64,000 bases of DNA from an uncultured Candidatus Actinomarina sp. (GCA_902555985.1 CACDUI010000001.1:67291-131290); one strand, 5' to 3'; shown: positions 8,795 through 53,115, numbered from the stretch's first letter. The notes: a model not told the origin generated them from the letters alone. Program-made: numbers and translations.

Positions 8795-10876
8795 TTAGAG
8801 TTTTCTTGAAGAGTTGATGACAACAGAAATGCTTGAAAGGGCCATTGCTAATGCAGCTAAATTAGGCGTAATGATACCTATTACTGCAATAGGTATCATT
8901 AAAGTGTTGTAAATAAATGCGAGAAAAAGGTTTTGATATATTCTAAGTTTTGACTTTTTAGATAATTTAAATATTTTATTTATAGTTTCTAAACCACCCT
9001 TGTGAATTAAAATATCTCCAGAAACTTGTGCTATCTGACTACTTGAAGAAGTAGTCACACCAACATCCGCTTGCTTGATAGAAGGTGAATCATTAATCCC
9101 ATCACCGATAAAAATAACTTGATTGCTTTTTTGCTTATTTTTTATAAACTCTAATTTTTCTTCAGGGTTTTTACCAGAGTGGTATTCATCTATGTTATGA
9201 TTTTCAGCAAATTTTTTAACATTAATTTGTTTATCACCTGAGAGAATTATGATTTCTTTTTTTGACTTAAGTTCACCTAAAAAATCTGTTGAAACAGAGG
9301 ATTCTTCTTCCAAGTAAATAATATAGATTTTCTCATCGATTGTAATCTTCAAAGAGGATTCTTTTGACTCATTATTTTTTTGAATCTTAATATTTTGTCC
9401 TTCAACAACTCCTTCAATACCAACACCTGATTCTTCTTTTACGTCCTGGGCTGAAAGCAGAGTTATTTCTCTTACTTCAGCTTGATAAACTATACTTCTT
9501 GCTATTGGATGTTGTGAGAAATTTTCAACACTTGCAACTAATTGCAAGAACATTTCTTCAGGTATGCCTTCTACAGGCATTTCTATTTTTGATATTCTAA
9601 AAATTCCAGACGAAAGCGTTCCTGTTTTATCGAAGATCATTGTGTTAATATCGCCAAACTTTTGTAATATATCAAAATTCTTAAAAAGAAATCCACTTAT
9701 TTTACTTTTTGTTGCTGTTTTAAATAAAACAATTGGTGTCGCAAGACCCAATGCACATGGACATGCAATTACAAGAACAGCAATTGAATTTTTTAATGCT
9801 TCTATTAAAACAATGTCTTGAATGAAATATTTATATAAAAATGTACTAAAACTTATAAGTAAGACAGTTGGTACAAAAAATTGTGTTATTTTGTCTAGGG
9901 ACTTTTGAATTTCTGGTTTTGTGCCTTGAGCCTTCCTTATCAAATCTTCAATGATGTTGTATGTTGATTTTTGGTAAGATTCTTTAACTTCAACTTCAAG
10001 ACTTCCTTGCAAGTTGATGCTTCCACCAACTACTTTGTCACCCATGTTTTTTGGCAAGGGAATGGACTCGCCAGTTAATAAGCTTTCGTCAACTGTTGTT
10101 TCTCCCCTGATAACTTCCCCATCAACAGGAATAAGCTGACCTGCAAGAACCGTAAATACATCTTTGATTTGAACATCTTTTGTAGGTATTTCGATATTTT
10201 CACCACTTCTTTTAACAATTAGTGTTTTAGGCATTCTACTTTTAATCGATTCAGAAGTTTTTACAGACTCTTCAATAACCTTGTCTTCAACTGACTTTCC
10301 AATAAGTAAAAATGAAATAATAAATGCCCCAGTATCTAGAAACATTTTGTTTTCTCCTGCTGATGAAACTAGCTGAGCAGGCAAAATAGAAATCAGTAGA
10401 GAGCTCAAGCTCCCCAAGGAGATTAATGTGTCCATGTTAAAATCGAAACTTTTAATTTTCTTATAGGCAGAAATATGAAAATTTCTTCCTAAATAAAGGA
10501 CAACAAAAAAACCTACAACATAGGCTAAGCCGTCATAACCTGTTTCAAAAAGATACTTCAGCGACAAAGTCATTAATAAAGAAATTATCGGTAAAAGTAA
10601 CTTAAGTTTTATTTTTTTATCTTCAACCTCACCTGATGCTTCTTTAGCTTTATACCCTATTTTGTTCACAGATTTGATAATTTCTTCTAGGCTATTGTTC
10701 TCGTCTGAAATGTCAACAATTGCAGATTTTAGAGGAAAGCTTACAGATGCATCAAGAACATTTTCATTTTTGGAAAGAATGCGTTCAATACGTGCTGCAC
10801 AAGCAGCACAAGTCATACCATCAATATCAAGATTTATTGATTTAACTTGGCTGGACAACTGTGTAACCTTGTTCAT
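8795..10876 (-). CDS. copA: Copper-translocating P1B-type ATPase
   Basis: N-terminal HMA domain (GMTCAACAARIE), CPC transmembrane metal site (ACPCALG), DKTGTLS phosphorylation motif and GDGINDSP hinge. Confidence 0.9.
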   Translation of the reverse strand: MNKVTQLSSQVKSINLDIDGMTCAACAARIERILSKNENVLDASVSFPLKSAIVDISDENNSLEEIIKSVNKIGYKAKEASGEVEDKKIKLKLLLPIISLLMTLSLKYLFETGYDGLAYVVGFFVVLYLGRNFHISAYKKIKSFDFNMDTLISLGSLSSLLISILPAQLVSSAGENKMFLDTGAFIISFLLIGKSVEDKVIEESVKTSESIKSRMPKTLIVKRSGENIEIPTKDVQIKDVFTVLAGQLIPVDGEVIRGETTVDESLLTGESIPLPKNMGDKVVGGSINLQGSLEVEVKESYQKSTYNIIEDLIRKAQGTKPEIQKSLDKITQFFVPTVLLISFSTFLYKYFIQDIVLIEALKNSIAVLVIACPCALGLATPIVLFKTATKSKISGFLFKNFDILQKFGDINTMIFDKTGTLSSGIFRISKIEMPVEGIPEEMFLQLVASVENFSQHPIARSIVYQAEVREITLLSAQDVKEESGVGIEGVVEGQNIKIQKNNESKESSLKITIDEKIYIIYLEEESSVSTDFLGELKSKKEIIILSGDKQINVKKFAENHNIDEYHSGKNPEEKLEFIKNKQKSNQVIFIGDGINDSPSIKQADVGVTTSSSSQIAQVSGDILIHKGGLETINKIFKLSKKSKLRIYQNLFLAFIYNTLMIPIAVIGIITPNLAALAMALSSISVVINSSRKL

Positions 10877-11051
10877 CTAACATCTCGGATATGAGAGATA
10901 GGTCTAAATCACTAGTAGATTTTACATCTACTGATTTTTGGTCAATATCTACAGTCACACTTAATACAGACTCAATACTGCCAACAGTTGACTCAATAGT
11001 TTCTTTACAATGTCCACAGCTAATTTCAGGTACAGTAAATTTTGTTTCCAT
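10842..11051 (-). CDS. copZ: Copper chaperone CopZ (HMA domain)
   Basis: 69 aa with a CGHC metal-binding motif in a ferredoxin-like HMA fold. The 3' end overlaps the copA start. Confidence 0.75.
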   Translation of the reverse strand: METKFTVPEISCGHCKETIESTVGSIESVLSVTVDIDQKSVDVKSTSDLDLSLISEMLDEQGYTVVQPS

Positions 11052-11413: not shown

Positions 11414-13312
11414 TTATTTTGACAAGTTTTTTTGTGTTAAAAATGCACTATCGTTCCATTTTCTACCTAAAAAGTTTTGAACCATGGTCTCAGCCGGAAT
11501 TGTTCCTCCAGGCATTAATATTTTATTTTTATAGTCAACACCAACTAACTTTGAAAGAACCCCCTCATTTTCAAACCTACTAAATAAATCATCACCTATT
11601 ATTTCAGCCCATATATACCCGTAATAAGCAGCATCATATCCACCAAGTAAATGACCGAAGGCTGCTAGATGGTTTATGTCTTTGGGATAAGATATAGTAG
11701 TAACTTCTTGAGCAGCATGCTCAATTTCTAAAAGACTATCTTTAAAGTTTTTTCCATGCAAATGTTGATCTGCAAGACCAAATGATACTTGTCTAAGCGT
11801 AAGTAAACTTACACCAATATTTTTAGACTTATTAAGCTTTTCACAAATTTCATCAGATAAGGTATCTCCAGATTCAATATGTTTTGAAATTCTTTTCATG
11901 CACTCTACTTTCCAAACCCAGTGTTCCATAATTTGACTTGGTGCTTCTACAAAGTCCCACTCACAGTTTGCGCCAACAAACCTTGTATATTTTGATTTAC
12001 CAATTCCATTGTGCAATACATGCCCAAATTCATGAAACAGAGTTTCAACTTCATCAAATGTCATTAACCCATCTCCCGTATTCGGGCTTGGGAAATTTGC
12101 AACCATTGAACATATTGGTAAGTCTTGTCTGTTGGACCCACCAGAGGAAATGTCGAAAACAGCTGCGTGGGTAAATTTTCCTTCTCTTGGGTAAAGGTCT
12201 AAATAAAAATAAGCAAGTTGTTGCCCGTCTTTTTCCCATAAAGACCATAGCTCAACATCTTTATGCCAGGCAGTTTTATTTGATTCAGGTTTTATTTCTA
12301 AATCAAAGACTTCCTCACAAACTTTAAACATTTCAGTTTTTACATCATGTATAAAGAAGAATTTTTTTAGTTCGCTATTTTCAATAGCACTTACTTTGCT
12401 TCTCTGTGCTGAAATAAAATATCGGATATCCCAAGGTGATATGTCATCAATGTCAATATTATCTATTACAAGCTCTTTTTTTTCTATTTCAGCTGCTTTT
12501 TGTAATTTAGAAATTAAACTTTCATACATTAAAGTGACATTTTCAGGTGATTTTGCCATTCTGTTCTGCAATCTATAATGAGCCCAAGTTTCATATCCAA
12601 ACAAGTTAGCCTTTTCATTTCTTAGCTGGACAGCCTCTTTCAAAATGGGACTATTTTCTTCTACAGCACGATTATTAAATGCTTTCCAAACAATCTCTCT
12701 CGTTGCTCTTATGCTGCAATTTTCCATGACTGCATTAATTTCTGGATATGCCATGGTTATAACAAATCTGTCTTCAATTTTTTTTAAGTTTTTAAGTTCA
12801 CTTGCACTTAACCCTTTTAATTCATTTTCAGAAAATAAGACTTCTGTCTTATCTTTTGCAATATTTTCTGAAAATGAAATGCTTAGATCAATAAGTTTTT
12901 TCTCAATTTCTGTCAGCCTAGCTTTTTTTTCATCTGAAAGACCATGTCCCGTATCTTTGAAATCAATTTCTAAATCTTTATGAAATGATTTTGATTCATC
13001 ATCCAAACTAAGGGTTTGAATTTCGCTAAATTTTTCGTATAGTTCTTTATCCTTAAATAATTCGAGCACAAAATTTTGTATTTTTGAATCAGCTTCATTT
13101 CCAAAATCTCTAATTTTTTCATCTGGGTGTACATCTCCCATAAAAGCAATACGTCCAGAAAGATCATGAATTGTACTTTCTAGTTCATCAAAATTACTTA
13201 ATACAATATTTTCAAATGATTTAATATTTTTGACTAATGTTTTACAGTCTTTAATTGTACTTTCTAAGTCTTTTTGTAATATTTCCAATGTTATGTCTGA
13301 ATAGTTAAACAC
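11414..13312 (-). CDS. M3-family zinc oligopeptidase (thimet oligopeptidase/Dcp/OpdA-like)
   Basis: 632 aa. HEFGHVLH zincin motif with a downstream Glu. Overall length and layout match M3 peptidases. Confidence 0.85.
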   Translation of the reverse strand: MFNYSDITLEILQKDLESTIKDCKTLVKNIKSFENIVLSNFDELESTIHDLSGRIAFMGDVHPDEKIRDFGNEADSKIQNFVLELFKDKELYEKFSEIQTLSLDDESKSFHKDLEIDFKDTGHGLSDEKKARLTEIEKKLIDLSISFSENIAKDKTEVLFSENELKGLSASELKNLKKIEDRFVITMAYPEINAVMENCSIRATREIVWKAFNNRAVEENSPILKEAVQLRNEKANLFGYETWAHYRLQNRMAKSPENVTLMYESLISKLQKAAEIEKKELVIDNIDIDDISPWDIRYFISAQRSKVSAIENSELKKFFFIHDVKTEMFKVCEEVFDLEIKPESNKTAWHKDVELWSLWEKDGQQLAYFYLDLYPREGKFTHAAVFDISSGGSNRQDLPICSMVANFPSPNTGDGLMTFDEVETLFHEFGHVLHNGIGKSKYTRFVGANCEWDFVEAPSQIMEHWVWKVECMKRISKHIESGDTLSDEICEKLNKSKNIGVSLLTLRQVSFGLADQHLHGKNFKDSLLEIEHAAQEVTTISYPKDINHLAAFGHLLGGYDAAYYGYIWAEIIGDDLFSRFENEGVLSKLVGVDYKNKILMPGGTIPAETMVQNFLGRKWNDSAFLTQKNLSK

Positions 13313-13349
13313 TTAACTCCTTTAACTTTTTATATGATAGTATTTAGTT

Positions 13350-13586
13350 ATGGAAATCAAACTTGAATTTTGTGTAGTTTGAAACTACACACCTCGTGCA
13401 GTTGGCACGATAGAAGATGTCTTAGAAATTTACGGTAATAAAGTTACCAATATTCAATTGATTCCAAGTGGTGGTGGAGTATTTGAATTTCATTTAAATG
13501 AAAAATTAATATTTTCAAAAAAAGAACTAGAAAGACACTCAGAAGATGGGGAAATTCTTAAATTAATTGAAGAAGAACTTGGTTGA
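13350..13586 (+). CDS. SelW/Rdx-family selenoprotein (78 aa) with in-frame UGA = Sec at 13380..13382 (CxxU)
   Basis: The frame reads MEIKLEFCVV-U-NYTPRAVGTIEDVLEIYGNKVTNIQLIPSGGGVFEFHLNEKLIFSKKELERHSEDGEILKLIEEELG. Both the CVVU redox motif and the LIPSGGGVFEF block are Rdx/SelW hallmarks. A hairpin tCGTGC-AGTTG-GCACGa lies at 13392..13408, 9 nt after the UGA (a candidate bacterial SECIS). Without recoding the ORF would be only 10 codons. Confidence 0.7.
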
Positions 13587-14317
13587 ACTTACCGTTTGAT
13601 TTAACTCTATTTGAAGTAATTTTTATTGCACTATTGCTTTTTATTGGCTCTGCAGTCCAAGGCGTTTTGGGTTTTGGGTTTGCTGTTATCGCTTCACCAA
13701 TAATTGTTCAAATTGAACCTAATCTTGTACCACAGCTGCTTGCGTTACTTGGTTTACCACTTGCTTTGAGAGTTTTTTACAGAGAAAAAGATGAAGTTGA
13801 TTTATCTAAAGTAAGGCCACTTATTTTAGGTCGGTTAATAGGAGGACCACTTGGACTCTTGTTCTTATTAAACTTATCTGAGAAATATTTATCAATTTCC
13901 GTAGGGCTTATTGTTTTCATAGCAGGTGCAGGTTCTTTTTTTGGTTGGGAAATAAATAGAAATAATTTAAATTCGTTTTTTGCAGGTACTTTTTCTGGTA
14001 TTTTTGGAATGATTGCAGCAATTGGTGGCCCTCCAGTAGCTTTGCTTTATAGAAATACTAAATCTCAGGAATTTAGGCCATCCCTTAATAGTGTATTTAG
14101 TATAGGTATTTTGATTACATTGTCTCTTTTAGTATTTAGTGGGAATCTTTTTCTTGACCACCTACTTTTATTTTTGTTATTTCTTCCAGTTGTTTTGATT
14201 GGAATTCGAGTTTCTAGCTCTCTTTTCTCTAAAGCCTCAGATCGTTTTATTGCACAGTCAGTAACTTATTTTTCAATTATTTCTGGTCTTTATGTTATTT
14301 TGAGAAACATAAATTAG
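13583..14317 (+). CDS. TSUP (TauE/SafE, DUF81) family membrane transporter
   Basis: 244 aa with two repeated 4-TM halves containing Gly-rich GxGGG-type segments. An apparent TTG start overlaps the selenoprotein stop (TTGA), so the true start is uncertain. Confidence 0.65.
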   Translation: MNLPFDLTLFEVIFIALLLFIGSAVQGVLGFGFAVIASPIIVQIEPNLVPQLLALLGLPLALRVFYREKDEVDLSKVRPLILGRLIGGPLGLLFLLNLSEKYLSISVGLIVFIAGAGSFFGWEINRNNLNSFFAGTFSGIFGMIAAIGGPPVALLYRNTKSQEFRPSLNSVFSIGILITLSLLVFSGNLFLDHLLLFLLFLPVVLIGIRVSSSLFSKASDRFIAQSVTYFSIISGLYVILRNIN

Positions 14318-43550: not shown

Positions 43551-44579
43551 GTGAGACTTACAGAGTATTCTCATGGCTCAGGTTGAGCATGTAAACTCTC
43601 CCAAGGAGAGCTTGCTCAGGTTCTGAAGCAATTACAACAAAATAATCACAGCAATCCTGAAATTTTAGTAGGACTAGATAACCCTGATGACGGTGCAGTT
43701 ATTGATTTGGGTAATAATTTAAAAATAGTTCAAACTGTAGATTTTTTTACACCTATCCTAGACGACCCTTATGACTGGGGGAGAGTTGCTGCTGCTAATG
43801 CATTGTCTGATATATATGCCATGGGTGGAGTGCCTATTTCCTCACTTCAGTTAGTAAGTTGGCCAAGAGAAGATATTGGATTTGATATCTTATCAAGTGT
43901 AATTAATGGCGGTTCAGATGTAATGAAATCAGCAAACTGCAGCATTGTAGGCGGGCATAGTATTGATGATAAAGAACCAAAATATGGCTTTGCTGTGACA
44001 GGGATAATCAATGAAAAAATATATAAAAAAACTGATATTAAAAAAGGGGATAGACTCTTTTTGACCAAACCACTCGGCTCAGGAATAATTGCAACAGCAA
44101 TCAAAAAAGGTAAAGCCGAAAAAGAAGCTATAAGTCAAGTTACAGAGATTATGACAACATTAAATGACAGAGGTCTAGCAGTAGCCAAAAATCTAAATGC
44201 TAATGCTGTTACAGATGTGACCGGTTTTGGACTCTTAGGGCATTTAAGCGAAATGTTAATCAATGATAATTTGTCAGCAAATTTAATTTTTGACGACATT
44301 CCAATAATTGAGTATGCAAAAAAATATTTTGAGGAGGGTATCTACCCATCTGGAAGTCAAAGAAACTTTAATAGTTTGAAAGATTTCATAACATTTGAAA
44401 ATGAAGACGAAGCATTAATATTATCTGATGCTCAAACTAGCGGAGGACTTTTAATTGCAGCTCCTAAAGAAACAAATGTAGATTTTAGCGAAATTGAAAA
44501 ATCACATGGGGTAACAATAAAAGAAATTGGGAATATAACTGATAGATATAATAAAAAAATAAATATTATTAGTAATTGA
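43551..44579 (+). CDS. selD: Selenophosphate synthetase SelD, itself a selenoprotein: in-frame UGA (43584..43586) at the catalytic SGxACK position
   Basis: GTG start at 43551, 5 nt after AAGGAGGG. Translation VRLTEYSHGSG-U-ACKLSQGELAQVL... continues in frame into the ORF-track protein (43707 onward), giving full-length SelD with its glycine-rich loop and AIR-synthase-like domains. Hairpin CUCUCC-CAA-GGAGAG lies at 43596..43610, 9 nt after the UGA (a candidate SECIS). Confidence 0.85.
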
Positions 44580-52810: not shown

Positions 52811-52971
52811 ACCAAATTTTACCCCGCTATTTTTTACCAGTCCATTTAAAAGTAATTTTAGATATTTTTTACTATCCTCTGATTGTGGATCAAAAAAGAT
52901 ACCCAGTTCAGAAAAAACAGTGAGTCTGCCCTAAGTGCGAATCTACTAGTTTTTCAGAAGACACTGTTACG

Positions 52972-53115
52972 ATGACAGGCAAAACTTGGTCACGTTTTAT
53001 GAATATTCAAAATCGAAAATTTATAGCAATCACTTGTTCAAATTGCCAATATACAGAGTTCTATAAAGGTACATCTAAGGGTTGGGAAAGCGTCATTGAT
53101 TTTCTAGGAAATTAG
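52972..53115 (+). CDS. Possible small ORF (47 aa, one CxxC), hypothetical
   Basis: MTGKTWSRFMNIQNRKFIAITCSNCQYTEFYKGTSKGWESVIDFLGN, in a 333-bp gap between two minus-strand genes. No RBS and no homology recognised. Confidence 0.2.
   Translation: MTGKTWSRFMNIQNRKFIAITCSNCQYTEFYKGTSKGWESVIDFLGN

Follow-up and report, generated by a model that had tools for sequence, protein, structure and literature searches.

Within a 64,000-nt stretch of DNA from Candidatus Actinomarina (the window, with positions counted from its first letter), the plus-strand locus at 13350–13586 lies almost wholly in a gap between open reading frames (ORFs) called with genetic code table 11. The gap, which the original prediction made on this DNA had described as an apparent intergenic region of 270 bp, measures 270 nt (13313–13582) and holds no called ORF; it is flanked by a minus-strand M3 peptidase gene with a GTG start at 13312 and by the first plus-strand table-11 ORF at 13583. 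Translation of the window shows a reading frame that opens with the ATG at 13350, runs through MEIKLEFCVV to a TGA at 13380–13382, and continues after it for 67 more in-frame codons, including LIPSGGGVFEF, to a stop TGA at 13584–13586. The sequence is exactly as had been claimed for a 10-codon ORF followed by TGA and 67 codons in frame, and the C-V-V-U motif and the LIPSGGGVFEF block are both present in the read-through product, which is predicted to contain selenocysteine (Sec). The nearest genome locus, at 91% identity, belongs to a Candidatus Actinomarina single-cell genome, and others to OCS155/Actinomycetota.

13350–13586, plus strand: predicted 78-residue Rdx/SelW-like selenoprotein coding sequence (MEIKLEFCVVUNYTPRAV...EEELG), stop included, from translation, profiles, codon entropy and structural model
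13371–13382, plus strand: predicted CxxU redox motif with Cys8 (TGT, 13371–13373), Val, Val and Sec11 (TGA, 13380–13382), from ortholog conservation and CxxC alignment

Family, fold and conservation of the read-through product

For the profile searches, the UGA codon in the 78-residue product was replaced by Cys. Residues 3–74 of the 78 match the Pfam Rdx profile (PF10262) with E = 2.3e-15 and 57 bits (gathering score, 22.6), which, as a sequence match, is far beyond chance; the NCBIfam model TIGR02174 (CXXU_selWTH) gives 44.6 bits (cutoff, 34.2). The top-scoring NCBIfam model is NF041051 (SelTWH_Campy), with 79.2 bits and E = 2e-22, and since its equivalog cutoff of 88 bits is not reached, the product is classed as an Rdx family member and not as a Campylobacter-type SelTWH_Campy equivalog. 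A sequence search of the PDB matched the bacterial SelW-related proteins 3dex, 2fa8, 2ojl, and 2p0g; in 3dex, 2fa8, and 2ojl, the second Cys of C-T-Q-C falls opposite the Sec position in the alignment, and LIPSGGGVFE of the product aligns with LIPSTGGLFE in the PDB matches.

The predicted structure leads to the same family. An AlphaFold2 model built for a 96%-identical database entry, with Trp at the Sec site, has a mean predicted local distance difference test score (pLDDT) of 88.7 and the order β1(2–8)-α1(14–31)-β2-β3-β4-α2, with the CxxU motif located between β1 and α1; the six read-through residues of this 84-residue entry have pLDDT values below 50 and are disordered in the model. The 21 top matches of the model in a Foldseek search of the PDB are all bacterial SelW-related proteins, with template modeling (TM) scores of 0.79–0.86 and a root-mean-square deviation (rmsd) of about 1.3 Å, and lower matches include MIEN1, mouse SelW (2npb), and thioredoxins. 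The Cys-type Rdx structures Atu0228 (2fa8), SAV_2001 (3dex), 2obk, 2oka, 2ojl, and 2p0g superpose with TM scores of 0.80–0.86 and rmsd values of 1.3–1.5 Å (the Foldseek TM scores to 2fa8, 2obk, and 3dex likewise span 0.80–0.86) and share with the product the blocks C-x-x-C/U...RA and (L)IPS.GG.FE. They differ from it in carrying CxxC, in being about 20–25 residues longer, and in an identity of only 17–24% in the structural alignment. Mouse SelW (2npb) and MIEN1 (2ljk) have the same thioredoxin-like Rdx fold and CxxU position, and match weakly (TM 0.63–0.66). The interactions with 14-3-3 proteins and glutathione are known for animal SelW proteins only, and the eukaryotic SECIS (selenocysteine insertion sequence) resides in the 3′ untranslated region and uses SBP2 and eEFSec, unlike the bacterial hairpin. 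The earlier assignment to the Rdx/SelW family is borne out by PF10262 and TIGR02174, both above their curated thresholds, and by the superposition of the predicted fold on SelW-related structures; the product is predicted to be a member of the Rdx/SelT-SelW-SelH group with a thioredoxin-like fold.

Orthologs were collected in one scan of a genome collection and one of metagenomes, with two search patterns, of which one would match Cys forms only; the scans gave 86 loci, 85 of them complete in the region. All 85 complete orthologs, at 47–95% protein identity and including one from a Tissierellia metagenome-assembled genome (MAG), have TGA at the Sec codon; neither TGT nor TGC occurs there, despite the Cys-specific pattern. 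Among 49 unique Actinomarinales-type genes, the mean column entropies at codon positions 1, 2, and 3 are 0.17, 0.00, and 0.62 bits in codons 2–7 and 0.49, 0.25, and 1.10 bits in codons 22–76, and this order of 3 > 1 > 2, seen before as well as after the UGA, indicates purifying selection on the protein in frame. Related genomes, where the original prediction had allowed that the sequence might turn out to be non-coding, carry the same gene with its UGA. When 1.8 billion cluster representatives were searched exhaustively with HMMER, more remote homologs came up, among them 37 full-length CxxC forms, 39 “CxxW” forms (code-4 miscalls), and 60 that start past the Sec position; of 145 remote representatives, 60 are N-terminally truncated. 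The Cys-containing counterparts that had been proposed as a check are absent among the 85 orthologs and present among these remote homologs; there is a classical Sec/Cys homolog pair, though its identity does not exceed 47%, the CxxC homologs being about 40–47% identical to the Rdx gene product. On the evidence of the codon itself, the Sec form is fixed within the clade.

Automated annotation had been said to miss the gene entirely, which is not the case. JGI already labels the C-terminal 42-residue stub “selenoprotein W-related protein,” and the ENA pipelines call an 84-residue code-4 product (“CVVW...GWTYRLI”) with W at the Sec site and the true stop read through. The gene is mishandled by pipelines in three ways: as a gap, as a 42-residue stub, and as an 84-residue artefact of code 4 in which the Sec site reads Trp. 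On short low-GC contigs, ENA and Logan call genes with code 4, which places Trp at the Sec site, each of the 84-residue artefact proteins bears six spurious C-terminal residues, and the JGI and NCBI database entries are N-terminally truncated stubs of 42–58 residues.

Hairpins at the UGA codon

13394–13410, plus strand: candidate bacterial SECIS hairpin with stem 13394–13399/13405–13410 and loop AGUUG (13400–13404), from pairing, covariation and consensus
13371–13391, plus strand: second hairpin, UGUGUAGUU-[UGA]-AACUACACA, with the Sec codon as triloop and a perfect 9-bp stem, from the minimum free energy (MFE) fold, pairing and RNAalifold

The hairpin downstream of the UGA is present as originally described, UCGUGC (13394–13399), AGUUG, and GCACGA (13405–13410) forming a 6-bp stem with its loop, but its 5′ arm begins 11 nt past the UGA and not 9 nt; the distance from UGA to loop is 17 nt. 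The consensus for bacterial SECIS (bSECIS) elements has a loop of 3–9 nt, an upper stem of 4–16 bp, a UGA-to-loop distance of 16–37 nt, a G as first or second loop nucleotide with a G or U after it, and an MFE of −7.5 kcal/mol or lower (PMC13188914). The element at 13394–13410 agrees with the consensus throughout, having a 5-nt loop, a 6-bp stem, a distance of 17 nt, a folding energy of −8.5 kcal/mol, and a loop that opens with A-G-U, the G thus being its second nucleotide. The bSECIS search suggested in the original prediction has accordingly given both a fit to the consensus and a basal pair that covaries.

The comparison of orthologs carries most of the weight. In 31 distinct 60-nt sequences, 186 of the 186 cells of the stem hold standard pairs; the basal pair is U-A in 22, C-G in seven, G-C in one, and U-G in one, and two further pairs alternate between G-C and G-U only. 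The covarying basal pair links the third position of a Pro codon with the first position of an Ile/Leu/Val codon, and the RNAalifold consensus independently gives the same helix. Codons 16, 17, 18, and 20 are CGT, GCA, GTT, and ACG in all 49–50 unique genes with no synonymous change, whereas four-fold-degenerate codons elsewhere show 1.0–1.9 bits of synonymous entropy (permutation p = 1.4e-4). Overlap with the promoter of the divergent M3 gene was considered as the cause of these frozen synonymous sites and was ruled out: loci that lack the M3 gene keep both the hairpin sequence and the covariation, so that the hairpin is not a promoter footprint. Orthologs outside Actinomarinales carry other GC-rich stems capped by GUU or GUC, such as CGCCA-GUU-UGGCG, AAGGCU-GUU-AGCCUU, and GAGAGC-AGUU-GCUCUU, and the shifted codon register of the loop in some of these distant orthologs argues that the RNA is conserved rather than the peptide.

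The SECIS of E. coli fdhF resembles the Rdx element in being a hairpin immediately 3′ of the UGA within the coding sequence, with an upper stem that starts 11 nt past the UGA and a G-U in the apical loop at a distance of about 20 nt. The Rdx element differs from it in lacking a bulged U, in its shorter, perfect 6-bp stem, and in the placement of the UGA, which resides in a separate local hairpin and not in a lower stem continuous with the SECIS.

This separate hairpin, at 13371–13391, was found in the MFE fold and had been overlooked in the original prediction. Across Actinomarinales, 93% of its cells are paired, and 7 bp of its stem also appear in the RNAalifold consensus. One compensatory change, from G-C to A-U, couples a Val-to-Ile replacement with a TAC-to-TAT change; at another pair G-C and G-U alternate, and eight of the 31 sequences have lost the pair that closes the loop. 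Val9 is encoded by GTA in 43 of 43 genes. The hairpin is absent in the non-Actinomarinales orthologs examined, and it must melt when the UGA is decoded. An outer helix around both hairpins, which appeared in the 91-nt MFE fold, is missing from the RNAalifold consensus and was dropped.

Start region, neighbouring genes and selD

13335–13343, plus strand: conserved TGATAGTAT, −10-like with a TG extension, 6 nt lying between it and the ATG, from Actinomarinales loci
13583–14317, plus strand: TauE/SafE (TSUP) permease gene with a TTG start at 13583–13585, from Pfam PF01925 (E = 2.7e-21)
43551–44579, plus strand: SelD selenophosphate synthetase, Sec type, SHGSG-U-ACK, UGA at 43584–43586, from translation and TIGR00476

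The ATG of the Rdx gene is separated from the divergent M3 start by a spacer of 37 nt (13313–13349), which contains the Shine–Dalgarno (SD) sequence of the M3 gene. The Rdx gene itself has no SD sequence, the duplex with the anti-SD being worth +0.1 kcal/mol against −11.6 kcal/mol for selD. The upstream motif TGATA(G/C)TAT is common to the Actinomarinales loci, and distant orthologs carry GGAGG instead; a simple sigma-70 consensus scan called no promoter upstream of the Rdx gene and found no −35 match. About 40% of the genes in the window lack any SD sequence, often with a TAnnnT-like box just upstream, which suggests widespread leaderless mRNAs and makes a leaderless start plausible and ordinary here; the start of the Rdx gene is probably leaderless, judging by these sequence features.

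The TTG start of the TSUP gene (13583–13585) overlaps the TGA stop of the Rdx gene (13584–13586) in the sequence TTGA, and the same overlap is found in 72 of 72 Actinomarinales-type genes. The start is preceded by a weak SD-like match only (−2.6 kcal/mol), and the N-terminal xxPFDL of the permease is kept with synonymous changes. The order Rdx-TSUP-Lnt holds in every Actinomarinales-type locus with enough downstream sequence, at a TSUP identity of 58–94%. No gene adjacency is reported to be universal in Actinomarina, where gene order is described as fluid (10.64898/2026.04.03.716425), which makes the linkage of Rdx and TSUP notable. The distant Sec orthologs examined have other neighbours than TSUP, the contigs of one Cys homolog and of one further Sec homolog ending too close to the gene to show its neighbours, and a literature search found nothing relevant that links TSUP/TauE to SelW or selenium. 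Contig NYXO01000052.1, labelled “Methanobacteriota archaeon ARS96,” carries an Actinomarinales-type Rdx-TSUP-lnt locus, and a 58-residue fragment is listed under “Flavobacteriaceae bacterium TMED206”; in both cases an Actinomarinales contig has probably been mis-binned.

The Sec-type selD that had been reported about 30 kb away is confirmed at 43551–44579, with 379 bits for TIGR00476 against a cutoff of 125, a strong SD sequence (AAGGAGG) before it, and its UGA 30.2 kb from that of the Rdx gene. A six-frame scan of the window found only selD and the Rdx gene credible as UGA-interrupted genes, in keeping with the claim of two recoding events in the window. The presence of selD also speaks to the possibility, raised in the original prediction, that the Sec machinery might be missing; a genus-level preprint reports selA, selB, selC, and selD for each of the 84 complete genomes of Actinomarina (10.64898/2026.04.03.716425).

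The UGA of selD stands at the beginning of a long stem-loop of −28.3 kcal/mol over 90 nt (z = −2.2). The apical loop closest to the UGA there is that of CUCUCC-CAA-GGAGAG (43596–43610), without G; an alternative, CAG-GUU-CUG (43616–43624), has a GUU loop 32 nt past the UGA, like the Rdx element, and the selD UGA can also pair locally as GCUCA-GGU-UGAGC. Elsewhere in the window, a short ORF at 52885–53115, with an in-frame TGA followed by VCPKCES..., resembles a small zinc-ribbon protein whose start lies past the TGA more than it does a selenoprotein, and a copper-handling pair upstream of the Rdx locus consists of an HMA-domain P-type ATPase (8795–10876) and a 69-residue HMA chaperone (10842–11051) that overlap by 35 nt.

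Decoding of the UGA, alternative readings and biological meaning

The locus at 13350–13586 is best explained as an intact, expressed-type gene for a 78-residue oxidoreductase of the Rdx family with a thioredoxin fold. The reading frame, the family as given by profile and predicted fold, the conservation of the UGA, and the Sec/Cys homolog pair directly support this reading, and codon 11 can be taken with high confidence as a UGA recoded to selenocysteine, as far as comparative sequence analysis can tell. When the UGA enters the ribosomal A site, the hairpin at 13394–13410, whose conservation and covariation are directly observed, would be placed at the mRNA entrance and would present its apical G-U to SelB·GTP·Sec-tRNA(Sec), and the SelB complex would then deliver Sec in competition with RF2. 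The hairpin is accordingly predicted to be the SelB site, which seems likely, though somewhat less firmly so than the recoding itself. In the protein, Cys8-x-x-Sec11 at the junction of β1 and α1 would cycle between the selenolate/thiol and the selenenylsulfide forms. Transcription of the gene is probably leaderless, and the conserved synteny, also directly observed, suggests that Rdx may be translationally coupled to the TauE/TSUP anion permease through the TTGA stop/start overlap. SelB binding, selenium incorporation, the redox chemistry, the leaderless start, and the coupling are all steps that we infer from the sequence.

Several results weigh against this reading or temper it. The folding energy of the hairpin is ordinary (−8.5 kcal/mol, z = −0.56, with 53 of 200 shuffles folding equally well) and was dropped as evidence, so that the support for the SECIS is comparative, and as the hairpin overlies the conserved P-R-A-V peptide, a part of that conservation acts at the protein level. 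The nearest hairpin loop in selD, CAA, has no G, and the two candidate SECIS elements of the genome share no obvious loop motif. ARAGORN found no tRNA-Sec in the 64-kb window, Pfam searches of ten large ORFs in the window found no selA or selB, and the presence of selA, selB, and selC rests on the genus-level preprint (10.64898/2026.04.03.716425). An Rfam scan of the window likewise gave no match at gathering score, which is uninformative because Rfam lacks a general bacterial SECIS model, its SECIS models being mainly eukaryotic.

Two further readings deny that the UGA encodes selenocysteine at all. If the locus were a pseudogene, or if a sequencing or assembly error had struck a Cys-type Rdx gene, the UGA would be a nonsense codon and nothing functional would be made, as gene callers that stop at the UGA and an N-terminal ORF of only 10 codons might suggest. 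Such an origin is extremely improbable, as the same TGA recurs in independent orthologs from single-amplified genomes, MAGs, and many metagenomes with no TGT or TGC among them, selection has acted on the protein on both sides of it, and the RNA just downstream is constrained; the conservation of the UGA, as read from these sequences, effectively refutes it. Reassignment of UGA to a standard amino acid (code 4 or 25, Trp or Gly) is the reading implied by dozens of database entries with W at the Sec site and the real stop read through, and it can be given next to no weight either. Table-11 ORFs cover 93.5% of the window, TGA is the stop codon of seven of its 55 long ORFs, and TGG codons supply Trp at 1.2%, so that the translation of UGA as Trp is wrong for Actinomarina. 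Only two genes in 64 kb need read-through, both of them classic selenoproteins (Rdx and SelD) with the UGA at a redox or active-site Cys position, the six read-through residues beyond the real stop are of low pLDDT, and the TSUP gene starts at the overlap.

The remaining alternatives accept a selenoprotein gene and differ in what the RNA does. The element at 13394–13410 might not be the one bound by SelB, its conservation reflecting the P-R-A-V-(G/S)-T peptide and codon bias, with the true signal elsewhere, for example in the UGA-loop hairpin at 13371–13391 or in a non-canonical element. The ordinary folding energy, the highly conserved peptide, the different loop in selD, and the departure of some bSECIS elements from the consensus (PMC13188914) are in keeping with this proposal. 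It appears improbable, however, given the four codons that show no synonymous change among 50 unique genes, against 1–1.9 bits at the remaining four-fold sites, the covariation of the basal pair between a synonymous Pro third position and an I/L/V first position, the GUU/GUC-loop hairpin that distant orthologs keep in a different codon register, and a geometry that fits the consensus. The UGA and the SECIS could also be primarily regulatory, with Sec insertion in the short and probably leaderless Rdx ORF gating translation of the TSUP gene by termination-reinitiation at TTGA and the Rdx protein secondary or a partner, a proposal that is compatible with the best explanation, that of a SelB-decoded Rdx selenoprotein. 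The invariant overlap, the TTG start with its weak SD-like match, a Rdx-TSUP-Lnt order kept across the order while gene order in the genus is otherwise fluid (10.64898/2026.04.03.716425), and the extra conserved hairpin centred on the UGA would all suit such a gate. A mainly regulatory role nevertheless seems rather unlikely, because the Rdx protein is under strong purifying selection with a predicted normal family fold, overlapping stop and start codons are common in compact genomes, and neither the distant orthologs, which lack the TSUP neighbour, nor the literature searched links TSUP with SelW. If the gate were real, and if the permease were made mainly by termination-reinitiation, only ribosomes that insert Sec would reach the permease; its synthesis, and possibly that of the downstream Lnt, would be tied to the selenium supply, and the Rdx selenoprotein would be functionally linked to the transport of sulfur or selenium oxyanions.

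As a selenoprotein gene of the SelW-like kind, the locus joins a family that has long been known, and the novelty implied in the original prediction was overstated, since the gene belongs to the commonest marine selenoprotein family. Since 2005–2008, SelW-like proteins have ranked first among marine selenoprotein families, in the Sargasso Sea and Global Ocean Sampling (GOS) data (PMC1088965, PMC2398784); in GOS, 427 Sec forms stand against 56 Cys forms, and the family is the most widespread together with SelD (PMC2398784). The marine SelW-like proteins (TIGR02174) share with the Rdx gene the profile family, the CxxU motif, a length of about 80 residues, a bSECIS that follows the UGA directly, and an origin in surface-water organisms, and four of the orthologous loci are themselves GOS contigs (AACY02...). 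The surveys made no assignment to Actinomarina and do not mention Actinobacteria, and nothing in them describes the hairpin with the UGA in its loop, a leaderless-type start, or a coupling to TSUP (PMC1088965, PMC2398784). The gene is a genuine, well-documented member of the SelW-like kind and not a new kind.

A bioRxiv preprint of April 2026 gives about five selenoproteins per Actinomarina genome, as predicted by deep-Sep, the commonest of which is a near-universal 78-residue “uncharacterized” family with no UniRef90 or KEGG match, no SECIS found, and no sequence given (10.64898/2026.04.03.716425). This family is very probably the present Rdx gene, which agrees with it in genus, in a length of 78 residues, and in near-universal occurrence, a Sec-type selD with an MRLT prefix and 342–346 residues being found in the same genomes. 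The “K07090” selenoprotein group of the preprint may, we suspect, be a mapping artefact of the 4-nt Rdx/TSUP overlap. What is new here is the assignment of the 78-residue Actinomarina selenoprotein to the Rdx family and fold and the comparative demonstration of its SECIS, together with the UGA-loop hairpin, the probable leaderless-type start, and the conserved TTGA overlap with the TSUP gene.

Among free-living marine bacteria, Actinomarina is one of the smallest and most abundant, and its commonest “uncharacterized” selenoprotein has very probably now been given a name and a recoding signal. The proposed coupling to the TSUP gene offers a first clue from genomic context to the function of bacterial SelW-like proteins, and Actinomarinales are a likely contributor to the long-known wide occurrence of SelW-like proteins and SelD in surface-ocean metagenomes.

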